This document shows positions 3,270-41,730 of a DNA stretch of 64,000 bases, in pieces. The stretch comes from Malacoraja senta (Eukaryota): contig CM075990.1 of the NCBI GenBank assembly GCA_038087875.1, positions 12,836,001 to 12,900,000 of the forward strand. Direction: 5' to 3'. A program made the translations under genes and the position numbers. Numbering within the stretch: position 1 is the stretch's first letter; each line of letters opens with the position of its first letter. The notes under the pieces were generated by a model. The model did no database searches. It was not told the DNA's origin and saw nothing but the letters and a program-made list of their open reading frames with translations.

Positions 3270-3396
3270 CTTCATTGAGGGAGAAACAACTGTTGCACTT
3301 CCAGTGCCTCTGATCAGTGAAGGTGACGAATGGGTTGATGTAGGTCTGACATGATGGACATCGAGGAGGTGCATCAGGAATCAGCAATGGGGGCTT
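3270..3396 (-). CDS. SEC24A/B-like COPII coat subunit, zinc-finger exon (last exon found in the window; gene continues off the left edge)
   Basis: ttttccag acceptor and G|gtacg donor; 127 bp; translates KPPLLIPDAPPRCPSCQTYINPFVTFTDQRHWKCNSCFSLNE, the Sec23/24 zinc finger in its SEC24A/B form (RCxSCxTYINPFVxFxDQRxWKCNxC), not the SEC24C/D form. Confidence 0.92.
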
Positions 3397-4694
3397 CTGG
3401 AAAACCAGCAAAGAAGAATGACGGCACAATGTTGTTTCAGCATTTCTCATGAAAATAATTGTGGAATTCTACAGATTCACCACCCTCTGACTTTAAGAAA
3501 TTCCTCCTCATCTCCTTTCCGAGTTATCGTAGGCTTGAGGGACCTAATGGCCTCCTCCTACGCCTATTAGAAAATTGACATCGCAGGTGAGGGACGGAGA
3601 GGCTGCTGGATATTGGGATATGATGTGTCAACACCTGAAACTGCACATCATTGTTGAGGCCTCACCAATAAACAAGGGGGCGCAGCTCTGAGATGGATGA
3701 TCTCACAACCATCCAAGATTAACCAGACCATTGGTTCATTGTCAGCTCCCTGGTGGAAAGTTGGATGGAAATGAACCCATGAAGTAAAACTGAGAAAGAC
3801 CTTCCAATCTCCAGTAAAGACACACATCAGCACATGAGTCCCTTGGCTTTTGCAAAGTGCATTTATACAGTGGAATAATCCAACAGTCACATCAACAGTG
3901 CATTGCATGTACAGTGATATCACTGCCTCTGTAACATGTGCAAGGGTTATTGCATACGTGATTCAATAACGTTGATGGGCTTTCTGCATGTAAGAATATT
4001 CTTTAAAGCAGCACTAAATGAATGACTAACACTGGTTTTCTGTGAGGCCACAAGGAAACACCAGGCAGAGAATCGAGGACAAGGAGACATGGTCTCAGGA
4101 CAAAGAGATGCCTATTTACGACTGAAATGAGAAGGAATGGTTTTTCTGATGGTTGTGAACCTTTGTAATTCCCTACCATAGAGAGCTGAGGAGTCATTAA
4201 GTATTGAAGATACTCCGGTATTGAAGATATTCCGGTGGACTCCGGTTATCAAGAGTTATGGGAATCAGACATTATGCCAATGGGTACGATCCACTCATGG
4301 AATCGTCAATCCCCGTTGGTGATAACTGGCATTCTGATAACATTCTGTTTCTTGGTTCATCAGAAAATGTTCAATACTATGTGAAAGAATGTGTTGTCTG
4401 GTAATTATAAAGCATCACATTTGATTCAAAATTGGGAGGGTGAACTTATAAAGATGGTTGAGATTCCATCAGGGACAAGTTATTTCTTAAGCTGAAGTTA
4501 CAGGAAGATTCTTGAACAGCTTAGAAAAGTGTACTTTTGCTGTGCAAGACTGATCTAACTGAAAGATACTGTGGAAGCAAAAAGAAATGCAAAACACTTG
4601 TAGCAGTAGCAACTGTTGTACTGCAAGATAGCAAGCTCTGACACATGAAGCAGCTTGTGGCTGCTGTGAAAAATCACTGCTTGTGCCTTATTAA

Positions 4695-4990
4695 AGCCCC
4701 TGTCCCACGATGCGAGTTTACCCAAGAGCTCTCCCGAGTTTAAAAAAATCAAACTCATGGTACTTCATCACGAGTATTTTTTTACTCTTTGGAAATTTTT
4801 CACACTGTTGAAAAAACTTCACGAGTTTCCGCGTTTCCCGAGTACCTGCCATTTGCATTACGAGCCGCTACGAGATATCCACGAGCTCCGACGTACCCGC
4901 TACGTACATTCTACATACTTACCACGAGTTAGATTTTTTTTTTAAACTCGGGAGAGCTCTTGGGTAAACTCGCATCGTGGGACAGGGCCT
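4695..4990. mobile_element. PIF/Harbinger-type MITE with long (about 75 bp) TIRs
   Basis: AGCCCCTGTCCCACGATGCGAGTTTACCCAAGAGCTCTCCCGAGTTTAAAAAAA and its reverse complement at the other end; TAA on both flanks. Confidence 0.85.
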
Positions 4991-5244
4991 TAAATCTTGC
5001 GCTAACTGCACTGGCAGTGTATCTGAGCTGCAGTGCCACGAACAATTCTGGTCAGTTCACCCCCCACCCCCCCCCCCCCCCCTCAGGTCTGTTCCTCCAT
5101 TTTGTTAGGTTGCAGAAGATGTGCACCTCAAGCCCAATTCTCTTCCCGAACAAAAACCTATCTCAGACTTGCCTGGGTCACATAAAATGATTTAAAAAAT
5201 ACATGTAATCCAAGGGAATCTTCATCTCACCCAATTCTACTTAC

Positions 5245-5347
5245 CCTGGAATCCTTGAACGGTTGGCAAATAAGCCCCAGAGGAAGTTTCACCTGTTTCA
5301 GCAGGGCCTGACTCTGTGGGATGTTCACCAGCGTACACTGAATGGCA
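5245..5347 (-). CDS. SEC24A/B-like exon preceding the zinc finger
   Basis: ctctctag acceptor and AGG|gtaagt donor; 103 bp, phase 2 to 0; (D)AIQCTLVNIPQSQALLKQVKLPLGLICQPFKDSR resembles SEC24A LFRCTLTSIPQTQALLNKAKLPLGLLLHPFKDL; joins both neighbouring exons in frame. Confidence 0.92.
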
Positions 5348-5681
5348 CTAGAGAGACAAGAACAAACACAACATGATTATAGCAGCAGTTCTTTTTACCC
5401 CCCCCCCCCCCCCCAGGTTCAATGTGGACAGAGAGCAGTTACATTCTGCAGATAACAAAAGCAACTTTCATTTACAGAGCTCATTTAATTTAGCAGCAGA
5501 ATCTCAATGCATGTATTAAATAAAAAACTGACCCATACAATCAGAGATAACCAAATGCTGGGCAGAGAGGTGGATTTTGAGGAGCATCTTAAAGAAGACG
5601 AGGCAAAGAGGTGAGAGGATTAAAGGAGGAAATTCCATGCATAAGACATTGGCAGCCAGTGATCCAGTGATGCAACAATTA

Positions 5682-5990
5682 GGGCAGCACGGTGGCGCAG
5701 CGGTAGAGTCACTGCCCTGCAGCACCAGAGACCCAGATTCAATCCTGGTTCGATCCTGGCTACGGGTACTAGTCTGTATAATTTGTTCGTTCTCCCCCGT
5801 GACCTGCGTGGGTTTTCTCCAGGATCTCCGGTTTCCTCCCACACTCCAAAGATGTACAGATTTGTAGGTTAATTGGCTTGGTATAATTGTAAATTGTCCC
5901 TAGTGTGTGTGTGTGGGATAGTGTAAGTATGTGGGGCGGACTCGGTGGGCCGAAGTGCCTGTTTCTGCGCTGTATCTCTAAACTAAACTA
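5682..5990 (+). mobile_element. tRNA-derived V-SINE (HE1-like)
   Basis: A box GGTGGCGCAGCGGT, B box GGTTCGATCC, V-domain CTCCGGTTTCCTCCCACACTCCAAAGA, (CTAAA)n tail. Confidence 0.85.
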
Positions 5991-6818
5991 CAATTATAAG
6001 CATAGATAACTCTATGTCATCCAGCTTGTTTTACCATTTGCACTGCAACCATTTACCAGTTAGCTAGAAGACGTGGATGCCAAATGTAGTCCCACAGTCA
6101 AAAGCTGTAAGTCTCAATGGCCATAAAATAGGTAACAATTGAGGGGGCCTTCCCCGCTATTTTCCGTTTGCTTAGCATGACTAGGTGAGGGAAACAAAAC
6201 TGGAAACCATATTCTGAGAGCAGTAAAGGAAGCCCACGCTCTTCATGCAAAGGGACAGCAAACTGAGGTACCATCAGTCCTTTCAAAATACAGGTAGGTG
6301 TAGAGGCAGGTGGAGGTATGCAAGGGGTTCTGTTATAGAAAACCGCGTTATATAAACAAATATCTTAATGGGGGAAAGTAGGTTAGAGGCTAGAGGGTTT
6401 CAGACTCACGATTACAGAGTTATTTTTCCCGTGGGATTTTCAAAACTTTTCAATAGCAATAAACTTACCACGGGTGTCAGGGGTTATGGGGAGAAGGCAG
6501 GTGAATGGGGTTAGGAGGGAGAGATAGATCAGCCATGATTGAATGGCGGAGTAGGCTTGATGGGCCGAATTCTGCTCCTATCACTTATGAACTTATGAAC
6601 TGTATGTAGACATAAAAAAGACACTAAGTATTTGTGTCCCCCAAAGTCATTAAGTATTTTTTTAAAGAGAAAGGGGGCTAATGCAGTATCAAAACCTCAA
6701 GAAAAGAACTTTCCACTGTAAAGTGAATGTGTTATCTTGAGTGTGAAAGTTGGTTCAAAAATGCGACTCTATCTTTCCACAGACATTTCTGCCTGTGCAA
6801 ATGGTATGCGTTTCTTAC

Positions 6819-6991
6819 TCAGAGCTGCAGTTCAGCTTCTGCAAGCTAGGGGTCAGGTTTGGCTCAGGCGCTGAGGCTGGTTCTGCTCGTGGGACATCCT
6901 GGTGCTCCAGCAGGTTGATTGGACGCACCTCGGCTTGCGGCCGATTCACGTTAGCCGTTGTCCCCATCAGCTGCTCCATGGGGTGCGTATC
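6819..6991 (-). CDS. SEC24A/B-like exon at the end of the N-terminal region
   Basis: cagcag acceptor and GA|gtaag donor; DTHPMEQLMGTTANVNRPQAEVRPINLLEHQDVPRAEPASAPEPNLTPSLQKLNCSS resembles SEC24A/B LRxVNLxQE...PVPNL...QKLNC; phase 2 end matches the next exon. Confidence 0.85.
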
Positions 6992-8198
6992 CTGCTGGGA
7001 TTAACAAAGTCATTTTATAGAACGCAATAAGATGAAACATGTAGGAAGGAACTGCAGATGCTGGTTTACACCGAAGACACAAAATGCTGGAGTGAACTCA
7101 GCGGGACAGGCAGCATCTCTGGAGAAAAGGACTAGGTGATGTTTCGGGGCAAGACCCTTCTTTAGACTGAGAGTCAGGGGAGAGGGAAACTAGAGGTGTG
7201 GAAAGGCTCAGAACAAGTCAGAACTGGCACCGATGACCAAGGAAAGGTGGAGCCCACAATGGTCCATGGAGTGGTCTAACACCTCTTGACTGTGGAGGGG
7301 ATATATGGATGCAAACAGTGGAACAGGCAAGATGACTAGGGTGGGGGAGGGATGGTAAGAGAGAGGGAGTGCAGAGATTACTTGAAATTAGAGAAACATC
7401 TGGGAAGTAAACTGTCTACAATAAGAAGAAATATGGGAATCATTTGCTTTTAATCATTAACATAGAAACATAGAAAATAGTTGCAGGAGGAGGCCATTTG
7501 GCCCTTCGAGCCAGCACCACCATTCATTGTGATCATGGCTGATCGTCCCCAATCAATAACCCGTGCCTGCCTTCTCCCCATATCCCTTGACTCCACTAGC
7601 CCCTAGAGCTCAATCTAACTCTCTCTTAAATCCATCCAGTGATTTGGCCTCCACTGCCCTCTGTGGCAGGGAATTCCACAAATTCACAACTCTCTGGGTG
7701 AAAAAGTTTTTTCTCACCTCAGTCTTAAATGGCCTCCCCTTTATTCTATGAATAAATTGTTTTGATTAGGTATTGTCAGGATTTGGGTGGAATTAGGCAA
7801 GACCCATTCTTATTTGCCCATTGTCAAGTGCAGTTACCTCCTGGAACAGAAAGGAAAGCTTTGTATTTCCAAGGAGTTTCATGCACATTTTAGAACAATT
7901 TGAAGCACTCTGCAGTCAGTGAAGTACCTTTGAAATCGCATATATAAGTAGAAAATGCAGCAGACATTTTGATAACAACTTCTCACAAACAGCAATGCTT
8001 AAATAACCTAATATATTATTTTAGTTAGAAATGTTGATTGAGGGACGGATATTGGTCACAGCATCGGGGGAGTCCCCCTTGTTAGAACTAGTGCCATGAG
8101 ATCTTTTACATTCGTTGAGAGCCCCAGTTAACATCTCATGTGAAAGTGCACAAAGTCCCCCGTTGCCCTCATCTTCTCTTCAGCAGTGCTGAACTACT

Positions 8199-8536
8199 GG
8201 GGCGGCACGATGGCGCAGCGGTAGAGTTGCTACCTTACAGTGCTTACAGCACCAGAGACCTGGGTTCGATCCTGACTACGGGTGCTGTCTGTATGGAGTT
8301 TGTACGTTCTCTCCGTGATCTGCGCGGGTTTTCTCCGAGATCTTTGGTTTCCTCCCACACTCCAAAGACGTGCAGGTTTGTAGGCGAATTGGTTTGGTAT
8401 GAATGTAAAATTGTAAAATTGTCCATAGTGTGTTGGATACTGTTAAAGTGAGGGGATCGCTGGCCGGCACAGACTCTGTGGGCCGAAGGGCCTGTTTCTG
8501 CGTTGTATTTCTAAACTAAGCTAAACTAAACTAAAC
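8199..8536 (+). mobile_element. tRNA-derived V-SINE (HE1-like)
   Basis: Same A/B boxes, V-domain and (CTAAA)n tail. Confidence 0.85.
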
Positions 8537-9522
8537 TACTATATCTCATTAGTGACCCTCAGACTATCCTTGATCGGACTTTGCTGGCTTTATCTTGTAC
8601 CAAACTCTGTACAAGTTTTTGGAGAGTATGAACGGGAGAGAGGTCTGACCATGAAGCTCTCCCAACGTGTCACATTCAATCTCAACTAAGGCAGCAGTTA
8701 GGGCCCTATAATTATTCATAAATAGCTTGGAGAAGATAAGAAAAACAACCGTTCAGAGTTGACTACCACAAAAAAATGAGCTAAGTTGAGACTGCCTCTG
8801 TGATCGTCACACTGATTGGATGGAGAGGGAAGTGGAGGGGCTCATCTACAAAGAATATTATTTGACCCCTCTGGCACATCAGTGGTGTTAGGTGGGAGGA
8901 AAGGAAGATGGAAATAGAGATATGTTTCTTTGATGTTCGGCATCACGCCCACACCCTCCATCATCAATGCACAATGCTGAACTGTGCACTGGCAGGTTCA
9001 ATGCAGATGAATTAATGAAAGGCCATCAGCCGGAAATGTCACTAGATGGTGTCAGACCGACTGAGCATTTCTTGTTTTCTATTATTATTATTTCAGATTT
9101 CCCCCACCCACTGTTTTATTTGCAGCACTGGAATGGTGGCGCAGCAGGTAACACTGCTGCTCACAGCTCCAGGCACCAGGTTTGAGCCCGACCTCAGGTG
9201 CTATCTGTGTGGAGTTTGCATGTTCTCCCATGGCCACTGGATGCTCAGTTCCCTTCCACATCCTAAAGAAAGGCTGGTAGGTTATTTGACTCCAGTAAGT
9301 GATGCCTTTAATGTGGCTGTGCCCAAACAATCAAAGGGGAGTAAAGAGGGGGGGGGACTGATGTTATTGTTCTATTGAGCCAGCAAAGACTAGATGGGCT
9401 AAATGGCCACCTCCTCCATTACAGTAAGAAGTTTATTTTGTTTGTGTACCACCCACAGAGTGAACTTCAGCAACTCATCAAGGTCTCTTCTCCAGTATCT
9501 CTTCTCAGTGCAACCCTCTCTA

Positions 9523-9808
9523 CTTTAGAGATACAGCGTGGAAATAGGCCCTTTAGCCCACCGGGTCCACGTCGACCAGCAATCACCCCGTACACTAGGA
9601 CTATCCTACACACTAGGAACAATTTACAATTTTACCAAATCCAATTAACCTACAAATCTTTGAAGTGTGGGAGGAAACCGGAGCACCCGGAGAAAACCCA
9701 CTTAGTCACAGGGAGAACGCACATACTCCGTACTGACAGCACCCGTAGTCAGGATCAATCCAGGGTATCTGGCGTTGTAAGGCAGCAACTCTACTGCTGT
9801 GCCACCCT
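9523..9808 (-). mobile_element. V-SINE (HE1-like)
   Basis: Reverse-complement copy of the same SINE. Confidence 0.8.
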
Positions 9809-9853
9809 GTACTTCTCTGGGGCAGATCTGAGGGATATTTGGACATGATGTAC

Positions 9854-9960
9854 CTGAGTTGCTGATGTGCCCAAACCCGTTGTCCAGAGTGACTTGTTAT
9901 GCACACTTTGTCCTGGGTGGGTGTGTGACTGGAATCCAATGGCCCCATTAGAATGCTGAG
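9854..9960 (-). CDS. probable upstream exon of the SEC24A/B-like gene (low-complexity N-terminus)
   Basis: Strong gtgttttcctttcag acceptor and CAG|gtacat donor; 107 bp open in phase 1 to 0 (xQHSNGAIGFQSHTHPGQSVHNKSLWTTGLGTSATQ), compatible with exon 6819-6991; no homology support. Confidence 0.55.
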
Positions 9961-10613
9961 CTGAAAGGAAAACACAAACAGGTTCAGCCCTCTCCCTGTG
10001 TGACATGGAACGTGTGCCATGAACAATTAGTCAGCCCAGTCTAAGCCACACGCACACGCACACGCACGTTACCCTGAATCAAGAACAAGGTGAGAATTTG
10101 CAGCAAATTCCAAAACATTATCAACTTTGGTGAAATATGCAAAAAGCAATTGATTGATTTTACAACGCTTGTGTTGTTTAATTAAATGCCAGTGAACATG
10201 GCCATGATTCAGACTTAGCATCTGTACGAGAATAAAATAAAGCAGAAACAGGTAGATGGATAGGCAAGGTTTAAAGGAAAGGTAGACACAAAATGCAGGA
10301 GTAACTCAGCGGGACAGGCAGCATCTCTGGAGAGAAGGAATGGGTGATGTTTCGGGTCGAGACCCTTCTTCAGACTGAAGATCAGTCTTTAAACCAGCAT
10401 CTTTGACAAACCAGCATCTGCAGTTCTTTCCTACACAAGGTTTAGAGGGATATGGGCCAAACGCAGGGAGGTAAGACTAGTATAGATGGGCCATCATGAT
10501 CAGAATGGATTAGTTGGAACGAAGGGCCTGTTTCCATAGTGAATGATATCAATGACACTAAAAAACAAGAACTGAGGCTCAGAAAAGTTGGAGCCAGGGG
10601 AAGTCAGGCAGTG

Positions 10614-10899
10614 AGACGGTGTCGCAACGGTAGAGTTGCTGTCTCACAGCGCCAGAGACCCAGGTTCGATCCTGACCATGGGTGCTGTCCGTATGGAGTT
10701 TGTACGTTCTCCCCGTGACCATGAGGGTTTTCTCTGGATACTCCCACATCCCAAAGACGTGCAGGTTTGTTGGTTAATTGGCTTTGGTAAAATTGTAATT
10801 TGTCCCTAATGTGTGGGCAGAACTAGTTTATGGGTGATCACTGGTCGGCACGCACCCGGGGAGGCGAAGGGCCTGTTTCCACGCTGTATCTCTAAACTA
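10614..10899 (+). mobile_element. V-SINE (HE1-like)
   Basis: Same head, body and tail. Confidence 0.8.
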
Positions 10900-12923
10900 A
10901 AAAGTTGGAGAGCAGAGAGCTGCCAGAGTGGGAGTAAGGAAGTGTCCAGGAGCAACCAGCTTGTCTGGAGGAAGGAGGTTATCTGGGAATAAGCTGACTG
11001 CCTGGAAATAGGTAGCCCTTCCCGGAGCAAGCAAAGAGCGGCCTGACTGAAAACTGAGACTGGGAAAGACTGACCATAGAGAGCCTGGCATTATGGTGAG
11101 AGCTGGAAGTCTGGGACTGACTGGGCAATTTAACAGGAATTAGCTGGTGTCTATAAAATCCTAGGTGCGTAGCAAAGCTCTCTGCAAGCCAAAGAATTAT
11201 TCTTTAAGTCTACTTTATTTCCAATGTGCAAAAAAAAAGTGATTGACGAACCACATTTGAGATGATTGCACAAAAAAACATGAGTAAAAGTCTGGGATTC
11301 TGAACAATCTATGGAGAAGTTAAAGGGAGACCTGATAGAAGTTTATAAAATTATGCGAAACATAGATCAGGTGGACAGTCAGAACGTTTTACCCAAGGTG
11401 GAAATTTCAAACAGTAGAGAACAGAGTTTTAAGGTGAGAGGGGCCAAGTTTAAAGGAGGTGTATGGGGCAAGTTATGTTTAATGTCAGGTGCCTGAAACA
11501 CACAGCCAAGGGTGGTGGTGGAAGCAGAAATGATGGTGGTGTTTAAGAGGACTTTAGATTAGCACATAGATATGCAGGGAATGGAGGGATATGTATCACA
11601 TGCAAGCAGAGGAGATTTGTTTAACTTAGCGTCATTATCGGCACAGACATTGTGAGCTGGAGGGCCTGGTGCTGTGCTGTGCTGTGCTCCATGTTCATTG
11701 TAACCTGCATCTCAATGGATGTGGCCACAATTTAACATGTCCTCCAAAAGGCGACACAGCACCCACTGCCCCACCAAGCACCCACCCCGCACCCTCTTCT
11801 CCCATCTCAGCACTGCTTTGAAGCACAAACCAAGGAGCCACGTTTTTAAAGTCATGTCTTTAGAATGGCTTTTTAACTCACTCCCATCCAACTAACTGAT
11901 CCACTGCTGGTGAATTATTTTGAAAGATGTCACTGCAGTTTTGCAAACAACCAAGTGAACTAATTAGATCTTGCAAACACGAAGGGAACAACTCATTTAT
12001 TTTGGTGGTTTTGGTTGTGGGACAGATGTAGCCCTGTTAAGGGGTCTCTTCTGCAAACAGCACAATTGGATCATTTTATGACCATCTGAACAGATTGGGA
12101 GAGGCTTATCTTCAAAAATGCAAGCCTCCCTGAACAACATACTCCGGGTTCCGTCACAGAACCGAGCCCAAGTTTGGTTCAGTTGATAACATACTTGCTA
12201 CTGAGTCAGAAACTAAAGTCCAAACAGCCAAATCAAACTTAACAAAGACCAACTTGTGTGGGGTGGAGCATGAGATAGAGATAGAGACGGAGAGAAATTA
12301 ATGGACGCTCATAGATATGTAAAAGTCAATTGACTTGTGCAATTGACTCATGCAAGATATCTTGATGCTTCCGATATCTATCAAAAACAAGTGATAATAT
12401 TATAAGTAGACAAAAGTGCTGGAGAAACTCAGCGGGTGCAGCAGCATCTATGGAGATAAGGAAATAGGCAACGTTTTGGGCCGAAACCCTTCTTCAGACT
12501 AATATTAACAATATTAAAACCTATTCTAACATAAGAGAGGACAAAGAGATGGAGCAAAAAAGTTAAACTGATTCAAATGCAGTATGCATCATTCTGCAGT
12601 AGATAGATCAAATGCTTCCAATCGCCTCCTGCCCACTCGCCAGTTGGTTTGTGCTATTTGATCATAGCTCTGATTTCATAGGCAAATGGCAAATGAAACA
12701 GACACTCCATCCTCAGACCAAACCATACAGATGGCTGAATTTTAATTTGCAGAGCAGAGCATCAATCATTCATATCAACAGCAGATTGTATCACTTTTCT
12801 CACTGCAATAATCTGCTCATTTGCCTCCTGTTGGCATAGCTACAAAAATAGTTCCATATGCAGCAACCAGCACAGATGAGTCTAGAGGCAGATGGGCCGT
12901 TGCCTGTACAAACCCTGAGTATA

Positions 12924-13214
12924 GTTTAGTTTAGAGATACAGCGCGGAAACGGGCCCTTCGGCCCACCGAGTCCACACCGGTAAGCCAACACACACTAGG
13001 GGCAATTTTTACACATACACCGCCAATTAACCTACAAACCTGTACGTCCTTGGAGTGTGGGAGGAAACCGAAGATCTCGGAGAAAACCCACTGGGTCACG
13101 GGGAGAAGGTACAAACTCCGTGCAGACAGCACCCGTAGTCGGGATCGAACCCGGGTCTCTGGCGCTGCAAGCGCTGTAAGGCAGCAACTCTACCGCTGCA
13201 CCACAGTGCCGCCC
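12924..13214 (-). mobile_element. V-SINE (HE1-like)
   Basis: Full-length reverse-complement copy. Confidence 0.85.
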
Positions 13215-19250: not shown

Positions 19251-20833
19251 GAGCTGGCCGAGTTCGGAACGGGAGGAGCTATAAAATTATGAGAGGCATT
19301 GGTAGTATAGACTGTCAGCCTTTATCCCAGGATGGAAAAATCAAATAGTAGAAGGCATACCTTTAAGGTGTGAGGCATTTAAAGTTTAAAGGAGCTGTGC
19401 GGGGTAAGTCTTTTCACACAGAGGGTGGTGAGTGCCTGGAACATGCTGCCTGGCATGCTGGTAGAGGCAGATACGACAGTAGCATTTAAGAGACGTTAGG
19501 ATAGGCATATGGATATACAGGAAATGGAGAGATATGGATAATGTGCAGGCAGATAGGATTTGGCCTGGACATTGTCTTCGGCATAAACATTGTTGTGATG
19601 TACTGTTCTATATAATGCAAGATATATAGGTACATAATTAATGGTTTCCGGAGCACCATTCACTCCTGAAAGGCTTAGATATCTTCATTCACATCATAAA
19701 CAGGTGTAGGATATTCCCTTCCCCTATCGACACCATAAGAAAATATGAGATGTATCTTTCAGGGTTACATTAAAGACAAACGATTCCTTCTCGCCTCCTG
19801 CAGGAATTAAGAGAGGACAGGAAAGACCTCTGTCCCACCCTTGGCAATACGGCAAAGACAGATTAGAACTTCACTTTCCCCCCATTGTGTGAAGGACAGA
19901 GATTTGAAACCGAGTTCCCATTCATCCTCCTCACACACCTTCCATTGACTTTCACTAACAAATATTGTATCTGTTTAGCATAGGCTGTCACAACCAAAGA
20001 CCATGCGTTCAACCAGAACAACGACTTCCATTTCTACACCACTTTTCCAGATTTTTGAGGAAGTTTCAGCATGCTCCACAGCCAATGCCGTCTCATTCAC
20101 TGCTGTAAGGTCGGAAACTCAACGACTAATTTGCCACACAGCAAGCGTCCAACAAACAGCAAAGTGACAATAAGCGGACAATAGGTCCTTTTTATTGACA
20201 TTGATTGCGGTGTATTGGCAATAACTAAAACCTAAAAAGACAGCAGAATACATGGGAGAGAAAGACTGTTAAAGAGACAAAACACAATGTGTTAGAGTAA
20301 CCCAGCAGGCCAGTCAGCATCTGTGGACGGAAAGGACAGACAATGTCTCAGGTCGGGACCCTTCTCCGGATGGTCTGTGACAATCAGTGAGATGATAATA
20401 CTGAAGCTATATGGCTTGGGTTAAATCAAAAGAACTGTGCTCATGAATGTTACATCAAACAATGGTGACACAATCTGCAACTGATGACTTTATTGATTCC
20501 AATCAGATCTGAGCAGAAGTTATCACATCTGTTGGAACAGGTTGTCTGACAGGTATATAAAAGCTGAAGTAAACGTAGTGGTGTTGCAGTAAGTACATTT
20601 TGTACATAAACTTTGTTTTTTTATACTATCATGGTCTACTTTATATAGAATGGCTGATAATTATTGCATATTTATTGTCGTCGTTCCGTCTAATGTTCCC
20701 GTAAAGCTGCAGCAAGTAAGAGTTTCATTGTTCTGGCTCCTATCTGATACATGTGACAAATAAATGATCTTACTCTTGTATGTTGTAACCAGATCGGAAT
20801 ATCTCAGGAATCATGGAAAGAGCAGCCACTTAC

Positions 20834-20894
20834 CTGGGGGCAATGGGTGAATTTTCCTCTTCAGTTGTTTACTGGACTTGGGAAAGACAGGCAT
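20834..20894 (-). CDS. candidate start-codon exon of the SEC24A/B-like gene (exon 20834-20947)
   Basis: cttacag acceptor before 20947; AACATG after an in-frame stop; MPVFPKSSKQLKRKIHPLPP, then a consensus CAG|gtaagt phase-1 donor compatible with exon 9854-9960; no homology support. Confidence 0.4.
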
Positions 20895-21407
20895 GTTAAT
20901 CCTCACCTTTCTTCAACATCCATTGTCTTTGTTCGAGAGTTTCCTACCTGTAAGATTTAGCAAAGGTGACTGACGCTGCTGGTATATGATGTTAGTAACC
21001 CTGCCCATCGTCCGCTGCACATTATGCATTATGCGCTCATTGGCAGTGTGGAATCTCCGTCAGTCTCCAGGAAGGCTGCATGGCAGTCCTACCCCTTGTT
21101 GCCACCAAGGTTTTACGTTACACTCGAGGGAAATGCTGATTAACTCATTCTCAGACCTAGCCTGGGGTGTTGAAACCGTACCATTTTGTTGTACAATAAA
21201 TCTCCGTTGCTGCAGAGCAATAAAACTATGAATTCCATTCCCAATATTTTGTTGTACCCACAAGAAATCAGCAAGATGTTTGAAATAGTTTGATCTTGAG
21301 ATAAACTCTGCATTGTGATTTAAGTGCCTCTGATCCATCAAGCATTAAAATACTTATCCCCTGCATCAAAAATACAACTGTGTATTACATAGGTTACATT
21401 TATTTAC

Positions 21408-21560
21408 CTTGCTAGTGGGGCTCATGTTGTCGACCTCCCCGTGCTGCGCCCTGTCAACTGACATCAGTCAGGCGAGCGACAACAAACAGAGACAGCAGCA
21501 TCGCCGCAGCTTGGTGCCAACCCGGAGCATGCGCCCTTTTTAGGGCGGGCACCTACGGAT
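21408..21560 (-). promoter_or_regulatory. candidate first exon and promoter of the SEC24A/B-like gene
   Basis: Non-repeat CpG-enriched patch; AAG|gtaaat donor at 21408; NRF1-like GAGCATGCGC at 21525-21534; GC box GGGCGGG at 21543-21549. Confidence 0.35.
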
Positions 21561-24487
21561 GTCGAACCGGATTGCATCACACTCCTGCAAACTTCTGCTG
21601 CCTCAAACGCAAGAAGAACCTTGCTAGTCTTATTTGTTTTAAACCTATCATCATTTTCTAGTAAACAGCTAACAATGGCCAGTTTCCTTTATTACTTTTT
21701 TGCATATTTTTCATTCATTAGGTCTATATCTCTCGTTTCCCTTTCCCCGACCCCCAGTCTGAAGAAGGGTCTCGACCCGAAACATCACCCATTCCTTCTC
21801 TCCAGAGATGCTGCCTGGCCTCGTGGAGTTACTCCAGCATTTTGTGTCTATCTTCAGTTTAAATCAGCATCTGCAGTTCCTTCCTACACTTCACTTGCTT
21901 CTTATTATAATCAAACCCCCACACTCCCCACATACTGCAAGGTGATGTTTTCAATTGACCAAAACCGTGGGCAGAAAATAGAATAGTTATTGAATTTTCT
22001 TTTGTCAAGCATATTAAGTTAGAACTTTCAGGACTGAAACTAAAAGATAGCTGACATTTGGAAATTAAAAAACTGGATGAAATAAATTGGGCCAAATTTC
22101 CTTTAAAAAATTATCAATGAAATTAGTATTTTCCTCAAATGCCCCTACTACAAAACAACTATTGGCTTTTCTTGACCATTGGATGTGAATTAATTTCTGA
22201 CCTGTACAAGTTTGTATTAACTCCAATGCTACAGAAAAATTCAGGCTGATCTTTTCCTTAGGGATTGGATGAATTCAGACCAAAACGCATCTCATCAATA
22301 ATTTGGCATTTTGCACAAATAAGGGTTTGCTCCAGAAAAAAGGAAAACAAACTGCTGGACTGTTCAACCGCCTAAATAAATATTTCCCTAACTGGCTGCA
22401 GAATTCCCTATCGTGGTGTAACAAAAGTAATAAAGGAACGGTTGTCTAACTGTTAATCAACAATATTTAATTTTACCATTGACATGTCCTTTTGAAATCC
22501 TTAAATTGCCACAATAATCATGTCCATTGACCATATAAAAAAAGATCTTTTTGGCTTACGAATCACGTGATCTTTCAACTACAGGCAATTCAACTATCCT
22601 TGCTATCTAATTTCAAACTATCTTATAAACTGCTGCAAGGTACACCACACACTTGACTATTCCTGCAGATGGGGTTCTGCGCTGGCGTTGCGATGGCGAT
22701 TGTAGAGGCAGGCAGTAAGTTACCAGCAAGCTTCTGTATGTACAGTAATGGCTCATTGAACCAGCCAATGCTGCATTTTGCTGCTGGTCCAGGAACAACA
22801 GACAGCCAACCATGTCATCTCTGGGTGCCCGCTCTACCACCCACCAAATGGAGCTCAGGGCCTGGCAGACATTGACGCGGAGACAACAACCTGGCTGCTC
22901 AACACCCAGCTTGAGATCTAACTATTCCTTTGGCTTATGTTTCATTCGCAAGAAAAAGAAGAAGTGCTGGTCTTAAAAGACTGTGTTGGAGCCATGCGCC
23001 ATTGTGACTGAAAAATGCCAGCCAGTCATTATCCGCAGAAGTCACTGATCATTGGTAGCTTTGGTCAATAGAAAGACTTTGCATCACAATGCCAAAGTGC
23101 CTTCAGTCAGCCACTTTAACTGATTTTCTTGAACTAGACAATTTTCAGTCCAAATGTCATTTTATTTTAGCCATGGTGTTAAGGCATAGGAATTGCCCAT
23201 TGTTTAAGACTGTTGGCCAATCTATTTCTTCAAACCGGAAAATGCACGATACATCTTTAATGGAGTTTGTGACTGATCGGTGAGCCAAAGGATCTGTTTC
23301 CATACTTTAAACTAAAGTAAACTAATCGTATAATGATTATCTGCAGCAGATCCATTATTGAGGCAACCAACGTTCCCAGAGATTAACAGAGTTTGGGAAT
23401 AGTCATTACAAAATGATTTTGTTATTTACCCGGGTATGTTGCATTGATCAAATTACGTCTCTTAATTTCAGTTGCTTCATTTTTCACATTTTATTAAAAG
23501 TAATCTCTTTAAGTCTAGCCTTTAATCAAATCTGTTTACGTCATCTATGTATAAACACTGCTGTAATTTCTACATTGTGAAACCATAATGTGTAAAAATG
23601 GCCTTTATTAAAATCTGACAATGTGCACTTTAACCACATGTGGGTTTTTTCTATTACAAATCTCAAATTCTGGAGTAGAGGCAAATAAATAAATAATGGG
23701 TCTTTGTCCCAAACATTATGGAGGGCACCGTAGCTCTTGGGGCTAACAGAATCAAGGGATATGGGGAGAAAGCAGGAACGGGGTGCTGATTTTGGATGAT
23801 CAGCCATAATCATATTGAATGGCGGTGTGGCTCGAAGGGCCGAATGACCTACTCCTGCACCTATTTTCTGATTCTATGGGTTACAGAGTTTATGGTGGGA
23901 GCTGATGTTAACAGCCTCTCTTCTCGACATCCAGCTGGTGAAATTTGAAGATCATTCAATAAATGTGTGTGAGACGAGCAGGTCTCAAGATTTGGAGGGA
24001 ATGGGAAGGTCAGGTGAAGGGATTCTAATTTAACTCTTACGAGTTATCAAGGCACAAATGTGTTTTGGGGTGAATATTATCAAAGGGAAGATTGGAAAAC
24101 AGAAGCGGTCCAAGGACAGACACTTTGGAGACACAGAAGTAAAGGTGAATCATGACCTTCCACATCTACAGGGAATTCCCAAGTAACATCATAACACCAA
24201 TGGTTCATGGTGGCAGCTCACCTCTCTCCTCCAGGACAATTAGTGATGGGACATTAACTGCAGGGCTTACCAGTGACAACCACATCCCATCAATGAAAAA
24301 GTAATTGAAGGCTTTCTAGCTGGATGGATGCGAGTGATATCAAGCCAATGCTATACCACTTAGCTGAATAGTGATTGAGAACCTTTAGAAGGTACTGCAA
24401 GTTGAGAATATCAGGACAGATCATCTGTCATAGTCACAACAGCTGTTTTTGTCTTTCTGCATGTTTCCTTTCTTCTCCCAACTTCAT

Positions 24488-24687
24488 NNNNNNNNNNNNN
24501 NNNNNNNNNNNNNNNNNNNNNNNNNNNNNNNNNNNNNNNNNNNNNNNNNNNNNNNNNNNNNNNNNNNNNNNNNNNNNNNNNNNNNNNNNNNNNNNNNNNN
24601 NNNNNNNNNNNNNNNNNNNNNNNNNNNNNNNNNNNNNNNNNNNNNNNNNNNNNNNNNNNNNNNNNNNNNNNNNNNNNNNNNNNNNNN
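24488..24687. other. assembly gap (200 N)
   Basis: Run of exactly 200 N; the round number suggests a placeholder size. Confidence 0.99.
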
Positions 24688-25358: not shown

Positions 25359-25462
25359 CCCGAAGAGTGTGGAAGAACTACCTCCCTGCAATCAATGGGA
25401 TTGTTTTCCTGGTCGACTGTGCAGACCACTCACGGCTTGCTGAATCTAAAGTGGAACTTGAT
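25359..25462 (+). CDS. SAR1A: SAR1A small COPII GTPase, internal exon
   Basis: tttgcag / gtaagt; 104 bp; (A)[39 protein letters not shown] and SKVEL are SAR1A-type residues. Confidence 0.95.
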
Positions 25463-26398
25463 GTAAGTCCAACAATGTTGAACATTTTCAGGGTAAAGGC
25501 AGATCCTTCAACAGAGTGCCTCTAGATGTTGATTTTTGTGCAAGTCAGTTCGTTCCCTCCCTTCTAACAAATGACTTGAAATGTACTATTCGGGGAATGT
25601 GGCACCTTGCATCTGAAGAAGGGTCTCAACCCGAAACATCACCTATTCCTTTTCACCAGAGATGCTGCCTGACCAGCTGAATTACTCCCGCTTTTTGTGT
25701 GTATCTTCAGCACCTTATGTTTCTCGGTCTCTTTTCAATTAGCTGGGAGACGTCATGGGGTGTACTGCACCTGACAACAATCCGAGACAATACTAAAAAC
25801 AGGGCTATTTATTGCACTCCGCCACCTGGTGTGTACAGATTGGAGCTGAAAAATGTGTACGAGGGAAAGTCTTCTGCTCCTGTAATGACATTATGGGGAA
25901 ATGAGAAGTAGGGACAAGCAAACTCATGGCTGGTCCTAAGGGGGGGAACCATAATTTACCTGTGGTAAAAGTGATGAAGAGACAGATAATATCTTGTAAT
26001 GGAGGAGTGGTTGTGATCGGCTTGCCTTCAGGTTTGTAACTTGGCATAATAGGGCAGCTTGCTCATGGCAGCAACACTCGGGCTGTCTTGGAGCTTTGAT
26101 GCTCCACTGGCAAACTGAGTACAATACCTATTATTACCTCAACATGCATTCAATCACTTATTTAAATGTTACACAGTAGAATATCTAATTGTTTTAATCC
26201 GGTATGTTTGAAGGGAATGCAGGAACAACGGAGTAAGAGACATATAGGGGAGTTGCGATCTAAGGTCCAATGACTGGGCAGGGACATCAGCTGGTCACCC
26301 ACATGGATTACCCGTTTTAATGTATCTACAGCCAGCAATTTTACGGATTTTTTTTTGTTTCTAATGATTATGTTTCTCACGTTCATTATCTTTCTTAG

Positions 26399-26530
26399 GC
26401 ATTAATGACAGATGAAACAATAACTAATGTTCCCGTTCTCATCCTGGGTAATAAAATCGACCGACCGGAGGCCATAAGTGAGGACAAACTACGGGAGATT
26501 TTCGGGCTATATGGACAAACGACAGGAAAG
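26399..26530 (+). CDS. SAR1A: SAR1A internal exon with G4 NKID motif
   Basis: tttcttag / gtaatg; 132 bp; [44 protein letters not shown]. Confidence 0.96.
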
Positions 26531-28335
26531 GTAATGGAAAGGCTCAAGTTTCTAAGTCATTGTATCGTTCGAGTGCACATATAAAGAATGGCTTTTTGAG
26601 GCAAAGCAACTCTGGTTGAAGAAAACTCGGGAGTTTTATTATTGTCACAAGTATCAAGGTACAGTGAAGAGCGTGGTTTTGCATGCTTTCCAAATAGATC
26701 GGATAATACTGGACATAAATATAATCAGTTCAAACAAGTAGAATAGATGGAGCTAAGGGGCAGATATAGAGTGCAGTATATAGTTCTCAGCATCGTAGCT
26801 AATAAGTTCCATAGACAAAGTCCAATGTCCACACTGGGGTAGAGGTGATTCGGACAGTATCCTAGCTCATGCAAGGACTATTCAGAAACCTCATAACCAA
26901 GGGGAAAGAAACAGTTTGTGAGTCTGGTGGTGCGTGTTTTCACGCAGCTGTACCTTTTGCCGGACAGGAGCAAGGAGAAGAAGAAATGACCAGAGTGTTT
27001 CAAGTTATTGATCTAATAACTCAGCACCCTGGCCACGTTTTGGTGCAGCACTAGCAAATTTACCAGACTATCAGATGCTACTCCACACACTGGGCCCCGA
27101 TCGTGGCCACAGATTTACTTGCATTCCTGACCCCCCCCAACTCCAAACAAGCACCTGGTCCACATGCTTCACAATATGTAGCCAACCTCACAAGTATGTG
27201 TATAGGAAGGAACTGCAGATGCTGGTTTATACTGAAAATATACACAGAATTCTGGAGTAAGTTAGCGGGTCGGGCAGCATCTTTAGAGAAAAGAGAAAAT
27301 GCCCGAGGAAGGATTCTGATCCGAAATGTCACCTCTTCCTTTTCTCTAGAGATGCTGCCTGACCCACTGAGTTACTCCAGCATGTTGTGTCTATGTCACG
27401 AGTATGTGGATCCATGGATAACTATTTCTTATTGCATTAATGACTGAGGCTGATATCTATTCATCGGGATTTCTGAATAATTGGGTATTGAATTATTGGA
27501 GTTTTACCGGTAATATTTAAACTGGTGCTGGTTGCAGGATAACTTTTTGGTTAGTTCCCTATTTTCTAATAGGTAGCAGGTAGACAATGTAATGCCTCAT
27601 CTCTGAATGTACACACAGTACTATCCTGGATATCTATTTTTAAAAGAAATTAACTTTGCTTGAGCATATGGCATTGATCAGCCCGTCTAATATTTTCCAC
27701 AACTCAAATTACACACGTTGGAGCAAGTGGAACAGATTTTAATAGAAACAAATTACAGCGTGTTTATCTTGCAATATCCAGAATAGTCAGAAACTATCGG
27801 AAAATCTAGATATGTTTTTATACGGTAAAGTCACAAAAGAGCTGTAAGCATTAGTGAACGTGTTGTAGCTATTTGAATGAACGTAGTTTATAAAGAGAAT
27901 AATATTAACGAGCGAGTGCCCTTTCAGTGAAACTTAGACCTGGTGTCATATAACTGTTGCTATGTTCGAGTTTACTAGTTTCATTCACTTGTTCAGACCG
28001 AGAACCTACAAACATGGAAAGAAAATCATTTGACACAATTATAAAATAGCTTTAAAAACTCTTAAGCCTGGTTAAGGGGGGGGGGGGGGGGGAATTTCCA
28101 GCTGGACTTTTCGTACAAAGTAGAATCACACATAATGGGTTGGAGGAGTGAGCCTTTGGAGCAACAGGAAAGTAGAAGCACATCGGTTTGATGCGAGAAC
28201 CCCCTTGTTAGATTCCTTCCCCATCCAAATCATTGGCAGAACAGTTGGTGGGGGTGCACGGGAAGACCCGCTGGTCAAGGATGACGGATCAATGGGCCCT
28301 GCATTATCATTGCCCAGCCCTGAACATTATTGCAT

Positions 28336-28655
28336 TTAGTTTAGTTTAGAGATACAGCACAGAAACAGGCCCTTTGGACCACCAGGTCCGCGCCGACCAG
28401 CGATCCCCGCACATTCACACTATCCTACAACCACTAAGAACAATTTTTTTTAAACATTTACCAAGCCAATTAACCTACAAACCTGTACGTCTTTGGAGTG
28501 TGGGAGGAAACCGAAGATCTCGGAGAAAACTCACGTAGGTCATGGGGAGAACGGACAAACTCCCTACAGACAGCACCCGTAGTCGGGATCGAACCCAGGT
28601 TTCCGGCGCTGCATTCGCTGTAAGGCAGCAACTCTACCACTGCGCCACCGTGACC
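28336..28655 (-). mobile_element. V-SINE (HE1-like)
   Basis: Full-length reverse-complement copy in a SAR1A intron. Confidence 0.85.
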
Positions 28656-31600
28656 ACCTTTATCTAAAAACATCTCCAAGCTGTCTCCAAGAAGACCAGC
28701 TGAGGACCGATTCGCACCAGAACATAACTCCAGCCTGGGTAGTAACTATTCTGTGTAAAAGACCCTGGGCTATGAGTGTCATCAACATATTCTAACATGC
28801 AGTGGGATGCCAACAATCACAGATTTTGGTTGCCTGACACCAACACCTCTGTATGGGGACTGGACGCTGATCAAGGGAAAATAGACACAAAAAGCTGGAA
28901 TAACTCCGTTGGGAAGGCAGCATCTTGGAGAAAGGGAATAGGTGAAGTTTGTGATATCTTTGTGACCCGAAACGGTGAATAGGTGATGTCTTCAGACCCG
29001 AAACGTCACCTATTCCTTTCTAGAGACGCTGCCTGACTCGCTGAGTTACTCCAGCATTTTGCGTCTATCTTCGGTTTAAACTAACATCTGCAGTTCCTTC
29101 CTACACACACTGATCAAGAGAACCCTGACTTTGATGTTGTTGTTGCCACTTCCTCTGGCATGTAGACATGGAAACCCATTATATGTCTGAGACCAAACAA
29201 CTGTGTAGCTAGGAGCTAAGCAATTATAACCTTTTGTGTTTGTGGGCTAGGGAGAGCTATAAAAGGAGTATATTTCATGCTTCGTGTGTATCGTTCACTT
29301 TGCAATTTATGGAAAATACGTGGGACCTTCAAACAGTCTGACTGCAAACTAAGCAGTGAGCAAAGGCAGAACAGCAGTCAAACCAAAACTGGGTTGGTGC
29401 TGCTACTAATTAAACATTGATGATTTGCAAAGTAAGTCAGCGGGTCAGATAGCATCTCCGGAGGAAAGGAATAGGTGACATTTCGAGTCGAGACCCTTCT
29501 TCAGACTAAGAGTCGGGAAAGGGACCGAGAGATATGTACAGTGATTTAGAGAGATATAGAACAAATGGATGAAAGATATGCACAAAAGTAACACTTTGCA
29601 GGATGCTAGTTGATGACTATTAAATTGGAAGATTAAATCTAGTTCAACTGGTAACACTATTCAGGTTAATTATCTCTGTAGATAGGCTGTAGGTAGATCA
29701 AAAATAATTCTTGTTTCTAGTTTTCATTCGGTGTTAAAATGATGTTTTAAAACCATGCAGTTCAACACATTGTATGATGATATTAAGTGGGTGGCTTTTG
29801 TTTTAGCTGTGGTTCAATGGGTAACACTCTTGCCCACAAATTGGGGATTTTGTGCTCGTCCAACTTCAGGGAGTTGAACACAAAATCTTAGGTTGACTCT
29901 CCCAATCAGTGTTCCTTAGGCACTATTCAAAAGGAAAGTTCTCTCCATTTTCCATTCAAACTTTGTTCTGTACTAAGCACTACAAAATTGATGCGGTGTG
30001 GTCAAAACTCAACTGCAACACCTCTGCTGTGTTTCAAACAGAGAGCCAGCCATTTGTAGAGTGTACCGGTAAATCACAGGGCACCAATGCTAAGATAATG
30101 AGTATTCGGCCCATTATCAAAGCACATCACCATCTGCCCATGTGTTATGAAAGCACATCACTGCCCTTTCAAAGCTAAAGTTCAGACGTAATTATTTTAT
30201 AATTATCACTTGACATATTGATATGGACATAGTATTGTCACCTGATTAATGATGCAGATCTTGTGAGTTCACTTGTGCTGCCAGATTGCAGCCCTTGTCC
30301 TTCTCTCTCATTGCAACCCCCTCCCACCTAAAGGTTGGTTCTATCTGCTCTTCCCTCACGCAGCAAGGCCGTGTTGCTATCAATCTGGCAAATTTAGAAG
30401 TTTTGTTATGGATATGGGCCTCGGAAATGTAAATGATAAAATTGCACATTATTAAAATATTGTGCTGCAATATTGTCTGCAAACCTTGTTTTGCACGAAC
30501 ACTGACCTTGACTTTGACTAGCCATATGCGGCAGCAAAGAAGATCAACAAGTAATTTTTAGATGTTCTGCCTATAGAAAGCATGGGCAGTATCCGGCAGG
30601 CAGCCTTGATCTCTGATGACGTTTGCACGAGGTTCACTCCTGTAACTTGACATTCTCGCACATGATTGAAACTCTGCCTCCCCACTCCAGCTGGCCACCT
30701 GTCAGCTCGAGGTAATTCATCGGCAGTGGCTGGTACATGGTTTGTGTTAAAAGCCAAAATAGAATATCATCCTTGTTGTCACTGTACTCCTTGTGTACAA
30801 ACGTTGAGGTCAGACAGCATCTCTGGAGAAATGGAATTGGTGACGTTTCGGGTCGAGACCCTTCTTCACCTGAAACATCACCCATTCTTTTTCTCCGGAG
30901 ATGCTGTCTGACCCGCTGAGTTACTCCAGCTTTTTGTGTCTACGGTTTAAACCAGCATCTGCAGTTCCTTCCTACAGAATTCATTGAGATGTTGGTTGTC
31001 TTTCTGCTGACTGGTTTGCACGCAACAAAAACGTTTCACTGTACCTCGGTACACGTGACAGTAAACTAAACTGAACTCTGTTTTTGGAGTCTTCTGTAAG
31101 GTTAATATCCAATAGGCAGTACAGCTCTCCAATTTAGCTTAGCTTAGAGATAAAGCATGGAAACAGGCCCTTCGCTCCAGTGATCCCCACACACTGACTC
31201 TATCCTACACACACTAGGGACAATTGCCAATTATACCAAGCCAATTAGCCTACAATTCTGTTTACTATTCCCAGTCATCTTTGTATTTCTGTTACAAACA
31301 CATTTGAAGGCCATTTCCAATTTAATTGTTCATACAAGTGATTATTTAAGCTGTCTGACCAAATCAGTCTTATCATTGGATTTAATTGTAAATAACATTA
31401 TTGTTTAGAGATAGCACATTCTTATAATTCACATCCCATCTTTGTATTTCACAAAAAGATCCGTAATTTTTTACACAAGCCAAGAATGCAGTTATAGCCA
31501 TTTTTAGATGCATCATTTGAAAGCTGTGTTTTCAGCTGCAAAATGTGTATGTTTTTAAATTCACTCTGCATGAATCTCTGCTCTATTTCTTTCATCTATC

Positions 31601-32316
31601 TTACACTGCTTAAAATCTACTTCTGCTCAGGCTTAAGGGCTGTTAAATCCAATTTGACTGATAATGCTCCATTGAAAAGCATTATGATAAGACCACATGC
31701 AACTTGCCATGCAATTACAGACTGTGACTGAATGTATGCTCGTCAGAACGCACTCACTGGTTGTCTGGTGATTCCCTACCACTCCGTGAGTCTCAAACAC
31801 ATGAGTTTGGAGATGCAAGAAAATTAAGATGTCGGAACCTTGTGCAAAACAAAATGCCGGAGAAACTCAGTGGGTCAGGCAGCATCAGTGGACAGGCAAC
31901 ATTTTGGTGCTGGACCCTTCTTCAGACTCTGTAAGACTGAATTGGGGTCCAGACCCAAAACACTTTCATAAAGTCATACAGTGTGGAAACAATCTTTCAG
32001 CCCCGCTTGCCCATGCCGATCATAGTCTGTTCATGCCCTCCAGAGATGCTGCCTGACTTGCTGAATTCCTCCAACGCTGTGTGTTTTGCCACGACTTTGA
32101 ATCCTGCTTGCACTGAAAGGAGCAGGACTGGAGAAACATGTTTCTACCCACCCAATGCAGTGGCTGCAGTTAGTGAACCTTCTGCAGTAGACTGAAGGAA
32201 TTAAGGAGGCCCGCCAGAAAGTTGGCAGAGCCCAAGGCACCTTGAAGATGGAGCAGTGAGGAAAGATTTATATTCTGTTTAACGTATGCAGTGGTAAGCT
32301 TGAATCTGAGCACTAA

Positions 32317-32782
32317 AGGGCCTGTCCCACTCGGGTGACCTAATCCGCGAGTTCTGGCGAGTTTGCCCTCGACTCATACTCGCAGCATGGTCGACACGAG
32401 GTCGTAGGAGGTCTTCGTAACTCTCCTTCATGCTCAAGAGTGGTCTCCGCGTACTCGAGGCCTCAGCTAGGTCGCGGCGTTTTTTTCAATATGTTAAAAA
32501 ATGCCCGTGAGTAAAAAAAGGTCGCCATGGAAAAAATCACTACTTTTTTTACTCGTAGGTAATCGTGAGTAGTCGTAGATAGTCTTCATCTTAGTTGAAG
32601 GGAGGTCGAAGGAGATCGAAGGAGGTCGTCTTCACTCTCCACTATTCGGTGTCCAATTTTCCCGAAGTTAGTCGTAGCTAGTCGAAGCTGGTCTTCAACA
32701 TAGTCGAAGGAGGTCTTCAACATGTCATTTTTTCAAACTCTTCTAAACTCGCCAATTAGGTCACCCAAGTGGGACAGCCCCT
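32317..32782. mobile_element. PIF/Harbinger-type MITE (466 bp) in the last SAR1A intron
   Basis: TIRs AGGGCCTGTCCCACTCGGGTGACCTAAT / ATTAGGTCACCCAAGTGGGACAGCCCCT; TAA flanks; internal GTCGWAG repeats. Confidence 0.85.
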
Positions 32783-33254
32783 TAATCCTCATGAGAGAAG
32801 AAAGCAATGGAAATAAGTTGAGCAACGGTATTGGGCATATCTTAACAGGAATTCTAGTTAGACATCAACATCCTTTACACCCCATGTATCCATTTATGGA
32901 CATCTGACGTAAATTGCGCACAAATTTGGAGAGGGACCTACAATACACTCAAGCTTCATTTAGACTGATTTATGATGTGTTCAGAAGAAAAGATGACAAA
33001 GTGAATGTTAATGTTTGTGTGGAATAGGTTTGACTTGCTGTAAGTGATTGCGTATAGCTTAGAATTTGAGTGTGGGGCATGGGGGAAATGTGAAAATGGA
33101 AGTTGCTCCTCTGGGATGCTGTGGTGACTTAATTTTGGGGTTGGAACACTGGAAAATATTTGGGATTTCTTGTTAAGTAATTGTTATGTGAAAATAATAT
33201 GACCTGTTGCTGCATACATCAGGGGTATGAATGTTCCTTGCCGATCTGTTCCAG

Positions 33255-33371
33255 GGGGCTGTGCCATTGAAAGAACTCAACACTCGACCACTAGAGGTGT
33301 TTATGTGCAGCGTGCTGAAACGTCAGGGATATGGAGAAGGATTCCGCTGGCTTTCGCAATACATCGACTGA
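33255..33371 (+). CDS. SAR1A: SAR1A last coding exon
   Basis: ttccag acceptor; [38 protein letters not shown]; the WLSQYID ending is SAR1A-type. Confidence 0.96.
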
Positions 33372-41598: not shown

Positions 41599-41730
41599 GT
41601 AAGAGTCATCCATGATACCAGAGGTCCTCTGAGTCTGAGGTACAAAATGTCGAAATTCTCAGCAGGTCAGTTGGCATCCATGGAGAAGAAAATGTATCTG
41701 TCATATGAACCGGAACAATGAAATTCTGAA

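Follow-up and report, generated by a model that had tools for sequence, protein, structure and literature searches.

The SEC24-like gene beside SAR1A

The window analyzed here is a 64,000-nucleotide stretch of the 1.94-Gb Malacoraja senta assembly (G000:C14:12836001-12900000), and it contains the 5' part of a diverged SEC24-like gene, referred to below as L, that lies on the minus strand and points away from a SAR1 gene. Among known proteins, those of skates are the nearest to the ones encoded in the window. L is in all likelihood an intact third paralog of the SEC24A/B lineage positioned back to back with SAR1A. For the explanation as a whole, in which L is a retained early-vertebrate ohnolog acting as a specialized cargo adaptor of the COPII coat (coat protein complex II), we estimate a probability of about 0.78. 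The gene is real, intact, and ancient, and it is apparently undescribed: the literature searched, with subscription papers and some supplements lying outside that search, yielded no account of a third gene of the SEC24A/B type, and databases label the gene Sec24A-like or Sec24B-like, with "Sec24A/B-like" used in RefSeq.

Exon mapping was guided by the "Sec24B-like" proteins of little skate and thorny skate, and the resulting spliced model comprises 20 coding exons, all open and with a single terminal stop, for a protein of 826 amino acids of which 797 (96.5%) are identical in little skate XP_055517725. Five of these exons lie in the window, all on the minus strand. Exon 1 (20834..20894, with the ATG at 20894) and exon 2 (9854..9960), which encodes a short, low-confidence N-terminus, were located by tblastn with the Leucoraja and Amblyraja orthologs and by the spliced model. 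The folded core begins with exon 3 (6819..6991; 173 bp) and continues in exon 4 (5245..5347; 103 bp), which by exon comparison has the size and phase seen in SEC24B, and in exon 5 (3270..3396; 127 bp), which carries the zinc finger as indicated by the spliced model, Pfam, and PDB matches. The 15 further exons (6-20) lie left of the window on the same strand, down to G000:C14:12807633. An earlier note on this DNA had described exons 3-5, and its reading holds: the three exons are bounded by AG and GT, their phases are compatible, they are free of stops, all four cysteines of the zinc finger are present, and its estimate of about 22 matches to SEC24A in 42 residues of the zinc-finger exon agrees with the 22/42 measured against lizard SEC24A. 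The same exon is identical to M. senta SEC24B at 21/42 residues, and the best PDB matches of the zinc-finger region are human SEC24B/A.

Of 39 segments across 20601-24600, that with the most CpG (13 in 200 bp, at a GC content of 0.57) falls at a local CpG/GC peak at 21408..21600, which also has a minus-strand splice donor and may hold the promoter of L together with a non-coding first exon on the minus strand; a promoter common to L and SAR1A is hypothetical. Tandem NAGNAG acceptors are present at exon 3 (window 6992-6994) and exon 17 (G000:C14:12815620), in agreement with one-residue isoform differences in RefSeq skate proteins. Intron 11 contains a partial second copy of the end of exon 12 (G000:C14:12825108-12825167; 80% identity over 20 residues).

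That the gene might be a pseudogene, as the earlier note had allowed, was dismissed on the basis of the open 20-exon frame (20/20 coding exons) and of spliced-length contigs encoding the L protein in close relatives. Of the 12 skate-cluster members, four were derived from Logan contigs; these contigs measure 2.3-3.2 kb and code for 520-826 residues without interruption, indicating that they are spliced. In the little skate spinal tissue data of PMC9605692, the baseMean is 81 for LOC116966579, the positional counterpart of L, compared with 104 for sar1a, 1861 for sec24a, 504 for sec24c, and 230 for sec24d; if this locus is L, the gene would be transcribed in that tissue.

Family membership and predicted fold

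On sequence comparison, L is a member of SEC24 and, within it, of Sec24I, and is an ortholog of neither SEC24A nor SEC24B. Pfam and the fold model were run on the little skate ortholog, 96.5% identical to the M. senta protein. All five SEC23/24 Pfam domains occur in order and above cut-off (zinc finger, trunk, beta-sandwich, helical, and gelsolin), and the four zinc-binding cysteines are kept in 11/11 L rows. The phmmer scores of 826 bits for human SEC24B and 792 for SEC24A, versus 325 for SEC24C and 281 for SEC24D, group L with SEC24A/B and not with C/D, as do the fold match and the intron phases, C/D being absent from the rows of the tree described below. The true SEC24B core of M. senta was rebuilt at G000:C1:280.3 Mb, confirming a separate SEC24B elsewhere in the assembly; L has the same start phase as this gene in 16/16 internal core exons and the same length in 13/16. 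The predicted fold (119-row alignment) has a pLDDT of 88, with human SEC24B as top match at 1.9 Å and SEC24A/B structures within 1.9-2.3 Å, whereas residues 1-73 of the little skate ortholog fall below a pLDDT of 50 and are unstructured in the model.

L thus resembles human SEC24A and SEC24B, the Sec24I members as described in PMC4419792, in its five-domain core, four zinc cysteines, core B-site residues, intron phases (by comparison with skate SEC24B), and predicted fold, and it resembles the SEC24A-SAR1B pair in having a divergent SAR1 neighbor. It differs from them in forming a separate clade with 47-48% identity (47.9% to M. senta SEC24B), whereas SEC24A and SEC24B are 73% identical to each other (72.9% between that SEC24B and lizard SEC24A), in its N-terminus of about 80 residues, in fixed changes at R435, R769, D772, and K813, and in its location on the SAR1A/TYSND1/CDH23 block. 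SEC24C and SEC24D (Sec24II) and Sec24III have the fold of this family in common with L. SEC24C shares a contig with L, at a distance of about 3.3 Mb; the phmmer scores for SEC24C and SEC24D are far lower than those for SEC24B and SEC24A. The ancient Sec24III was lost from opisthokonts according to PMC4419792, and since L nests inside vertebrate Sec24I with invertebrate outgroups, it is not Sec24III.

Phylogenetic position and distribution

The tree was computed with IQ-TREE (LG+C20+F+G4) from 35 chosen rows and 781 columns of the C-terminal 790 residues, omitting most near-identical SEC24B matches, isoforms, and all C/D rows. L (100/100), A (100/100), and B (100/99) form separate clades, with support of 98/98 for A+B and 100/99 for all vertebrate rows. 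In approximately unbiased (AU) tests, forcing shark L together with SEC24A costs 177 log-likelihood units (p=1.3e-5), and forcing all L together with A, or with B, costs 11 units each (p 0.036 each). L is therefore monophyletic with neither SEC24A nor SEC24B, the true M. senta SEC24B grouping with the B clade, and the nesting within either that the earlier note had named as a refutation was not found. Twelve residues are common to 11/11 L rows and present in 0/24 other rows.

A profile search, of which 120 of 496 matches were listed, returned among these at least 17 rows from at least 13 chondrichthyan species (rays, sharks, and chimaera) at 1194-1804 bits, with the score falling to 959 bits at canonical SEC24B directly below them; the thorny skate (Amblyraja) ortholog brings L to at least 14 chondrichthyan species. 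A 50%-cluster search (best 150 of 6262) added a coelacanth protein (XP_014340472/H3B6C9) and a bichir protein. Among the proteins compared, that of coelacanth and those of two bichirs (XP_028651776, XP_039593759) are the only non-chondrichthyan ones scoring the L profile above the A/B profile; the coelacanth sequence was itself part of the L profile, and the bichir sequences, with a score ratio of 1.17, were not. A third search seeded with coelacanth and bichir gave no further lineage (120 of 1732 matches listed; 7998 best candidates scored). Coelacanth has SEC24A (H3ALJ2), SEC24B, and the third, L-type protein, and if long branches are not misleading, L and A/B would have split before the jawed vertebrates arose. 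Among the matches listed in the three protein searches, none was an ortholog from a tetrapod or a teleost. These listed matches suggest that L is absent from gar, sturgeon, and lungfish as well as from tetrapods and teleosts. The loss that the earlier note proposed for mammals is apparently wider, taking in tetrapods and teleosts among the matches listed.

Origin of the gene

L occupies a position in the paralogon formed by 4q25, 5q35, and 10q22, a product of genome duplication as described in PMC4678570, and its age appears to be pre-gnathostome (cyclostome branch 74/66). Gene structure, tree, and neighbors support the proposal of the earlier note that a SEC24A/B-SAR1 pair was duplicated and left a third ohnolog. 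The tree shape ((A,B),L) fits the way in which we take these blocks to be related, with those of 4q and 5q forming a pair and that of 10q standing apart. For this origin and the subsequent losses we infer the following course. An ancestral divergent SAR1-SEC24 pair would have been doubled in the early vertebrate genome duplications, after which SAR1B-SEC24A would have stayed on the 5q31-type block and SEC24B on the 4q25-type block, and SAR1A and L would have stayed on the 10q22-type block in cartilaginous fish and probably also in coelacanth and bichirs. The back-to-back SAR1-SEC24 layout is thus likely older than the split of SAR1A and SAR1B. After duplication L would have sped up about threefold over SEC24B and shed most of its long proline-rich N-terminus, and land vertebrates and the majority of bony fish have likely lost it.

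Linkage of L to SAR1A spans an assembly gap of 200 N at 24488..24687. Left of L are an hnRNP A/B/D-type gene, BLOC1S2, an SLC25 mitochondrial carrier, and a multi-exon CDH23-like cadherin, for which cadherin-23 is the top PDB match over a single stretch, and right of the gap are SAR1 exons 4-6 followed by TYSND1 and DDIT4. The little skate table in supplement 2 of PMC9605692 lists ddit4, tysnd1, sar1a, LOC116966579, LOC116966580, bloc1s2, LOC116966472, and cdh23 under consecutive identifiers (G0016100-107), an order across the gap identical to that in M. senta. A misjoin at the gap, which the earlier note had raised as a way in which the pairing could fail, was discarded because of this agreement on both sides.

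The canonical pair is found elsewhere in little skate, where the same supplement lists sar1b, sec24a, and camlg together (G0006748-50), so that sec24a and not L is beside SAR1B/CAMLG, and the supplement of PMC10115646 places Sec24a on Leri_11C and Sar1a on Leri_34C. SAR1B, SEC24A, CAMLG, and C5orf24 are consecutive neighbors in other vertebrates. In M. senta, CAMLG and C5orf24 had no match in the assembly (searches run without a positive control), nor had SEC24A and SAR1B, and as all four are unmatched the assembly may lack the SAR1B-SEC24A-CAMLG-C5orf24 block. The canonical SEC24A that the earlier note expected in the same assembly was thus not recovered there, but it is present in little skate and coelacanth. 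A search of the 200 kb surrounding SKP1 (C1:252.6 Mb) gave no SEC24 similarity and no other recognizable host gene among 66 open reading frames. SKP1 itself lies in a repeat-rich stretch (G000:C1:252640000-252680000), with no TCF7, VDAC1, or PPP2CA recognized within 100 kb, and adjoins remnants of long terminal repeat retroelements (zinc knuckle, RNase H, and integrase matches). A search of the assembly for PPA1 gave one match, on C1.

The failure to find SEC24A in M. senta, together with the modest rejection of L+A and L+B, could also be accommodated if an early jawed vertebrate had gained L through local or segmental duplication or translocation of SEC24A or SEC24B, or if L were simply a diverged shark SEC24A ortholog. 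This is hardly probable at all, given the strong rejection of shark L with SEC24A, the little skate sec24a beside sar1b (PMC9605692) and on Leri_11C, with Sar1a on Leri_34C (PMC10115646), the lack of CAMLG and C5orf24 matches pointing to a missing block, and the divergent SAR1-SEC24 layout repeated on two paralogous blocks.

Cargo-binding sites and predicted function

The B-site of SEC24A comprises R750, R752, Y437, and Y496, and the C-site R541 and K813, as given in PMC9351455; this numbering was carried over to L through the PDB alignment and lizard SEC24A. The M. senta protein keeps 4/4 B-site residues, and across eight chondrichthyan L rows Y437 is kept in 8/8, Y496 in 7/8, R750 in 7/8, and R752 in 8/8. 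R435 and K813 are kept in 0/8 and R541 in 4/8; in M. senta both R541 and K813 are Q, so that this protein lacks the C-site pair of Sec24I. The C-site of SEC24 binds SEC22. The non-L rows are without exception invariant at 160 columns; at 24 of these, 8/8 chondrichthyan L rows have a different residue, many of the columns being replaced by one fixed residue; the 24 include R435, R769, D772, and A806, which presumably rim the B-site. F576 and P578, which we take to contact SEC23, are kept in 8/8. The region before the core spans 74-94 residues in nine L proteins versus 350-544 in seven canonical or cyclostome proteins, so that L lacks the long proline-rich N-terminal region that is usual in Sec24I, though not strictly defining of it.

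A kept B-site, a changed C-site and rim, and a short N-terminus lead us to infer a coat subunit that reads B-site signals, and L is probably a specialized COPII cargo adaptor. SEC23 would be its partner and SAR1-GTP would recruit it, and cargo would be captured by a B-site that is retained but has a new shape and a shifted preference. A weakened C-site and few N-terminal contacts would leave it with fewer export clients than SEC24A/B, and the range of proteins that L selects to leave the endoplasmic reticulum is predicted to be narrower.

The rate of change allows another reading of the same history. L evolves about three times faster than SEC24B (skate-orectolobiform path 0.45 versus 0.16; identity 71% versus 87%), and this rate, the retention of R541 in sharks, the K813 change in M. 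senta SEC24B, and the loss of R752 in the coelacanth and bichir copies make partial redundancy and slow decay possible. It is nonetheless unlikely that L is no more than a backup SEC24, in large part redundant and decaying slowly, with no separate cargo range. The low spinal count relative to sec24a, if LOC116966579 is L, and the repeated apparent losses in bony vertebrates would suit a backup, but frames are open in at least 14 chondrichthyan species ranging from skate to chimaera, with 66% identity, and the replacement of 24 otherwise invariant columns in all eight rows, several around the B-site, resembles a shift that was subsequently conserved. The missing long N-terminal region, replacement of R435, R769, D772, and K813, and loss of R752 in coelacanth and bichirs might instead indicate a SEC23 partner that no longer sorts cargo and dilutes or modulates the coat in a non-selective or inhibitory manner. 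The near-complete retention of the four B-site residues in chondrichthyans renders this highly improbable.

Several observations weigh against L as a retained ohnolog and specialized adaptor. The branch placing the cyclostomes has support of 74/66, and the timing of the duplication consequently comes from synteny and not from the tree. The L branches are long (stem 0.51; bichir 1.26, with atypical composition), so that coelacanth and bichir membership could be partly attraction. Rejection of L+A and L+B reaches only p about 0.036, and the tree holds only five SEC24A rows, none of them chondrichthyan and two partial. SEC24A and SAR1B are unmatched in the M. senta assembly. The C-site signal is not clean, since 4/8 chondrichthyan rows (sharks) keep R541 and M. 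senta SEC24B itself has K813N, and R752 is changed in 3/3 coelacanth and bichir rows. The fold model, built with 118 homologs, could lean on them. Thorny skate served as the basis for scaffolding and annotating the little skate assembly, as described in PMC9605692, the annotation being lifted over, and the two skates thus count as one outside witness rather than two; LOC116966579 is moreover equated with L by position only.

SEC24 gene number and significance

The L lineage, over 400 million years old, changes the ancestral count of vertebrate SEC24 genes, which COPII reviews such as PMC11557686 put at four paralogs in mammals. A diverged SEC24C-like gene with 15 exon matches across the core is present at G000:C15:10088600-10106200, alongside SEC24C at C14:9.54-9.56 Mb and SEC24D at C1:263.7 Mb, and is a candidate third ohnolog of the C/D lineage. 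The M. senta lineage may therefore hold six SEC24 genes; the earlier note's fifth COPII cargo adaptor is a real extra gene, but "fifth" may be an undercount. A jawed-vertebrate ancestor with six SEC24 adaptors instead of four, among them a third C/D-type gene and, paired with SAR1A, a compact A/B-type L with a rewired cargo surface and no long disordered tail that was lost in parallel in tetrapods and teleosts, is put forward tentatively; in this reading L would serve a secretory task retained in sharks, coelacanth, and bichirs. Survival of an ohnolog in sharks, coelacanth, and bichirs is already a familiar pattern. The case resembles Pdx2, kept in cartilaginous fish and coelacanth according to PMC2944030, in ohnolog retention with parallel loss, but L is a core membrane-traffic subunit rather than a developmental regulator, and bichirs appear to keep it too. 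As a natural experiment combining a folded SEC24 core with almost no disordered N-terminus and an altered C-site, L makes the roles of both regions directly testable.

Neighboring genes and assembly features

SAR1A is represented on the plus strand by coding exon 4 (25359..25462; SAR1 match), exon 5 (26399..26530; SAR1 match and Pfam), and the last coding exon including the stop (33255..33371; SAR1 match and Pfam). In the 264 kb examined, exons 1-3 could not be located, with none recognized among 46 Arf-family matches, and they probably sit in the 200-N gap, which likely conceals the SAR1A promoter as well. The SAR1A-type residues claimed by the earlier note are borne out in exon 4 (61.9 bits for SAR1A versus 58.4 for SAR1B) and exon 6 (67.3 versus 66.9), but exon 5 favors SAR1B (71.9 versus 74.0). 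The identification as SAR1A is therefore based on the neighbors, a trypsin-domain gene and an RTP801-domain gene, which we named TYSND1 and DDIT4 from their Pfam domains and the little skate gene order. TYSND1 (40472..51892, plus strand; open reading frame and Trypsin_2 match) and DDIT4 (57649..59711, minus strand; RTP801_C, 1e-38) serve as synteny markers, with ends read from the sequence.

Directly downstream of L lies the hnRNP A/B/D-family gene (G000:C14:12775000-12799000). Two other loci of this family are found on C1 at 345.4 Mb, and the gene beside L could be HNRNPAB itself or a further ohnolog that mammals have lost. It is included in a 37-kb block that occurs in two copies, 99.8-99.9% identical and separated by a 200-N gap (G000:C14:12728552-12803260), likely a false assembly duplication. 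Between BLOC1S2 and CDH23, where little skate has an unnamed LOC gene, lies a mitochondrial carrier exon (L019:3660-3863, minus strand) that appears to us to resemble the calcium-binding SCaMC carriers.

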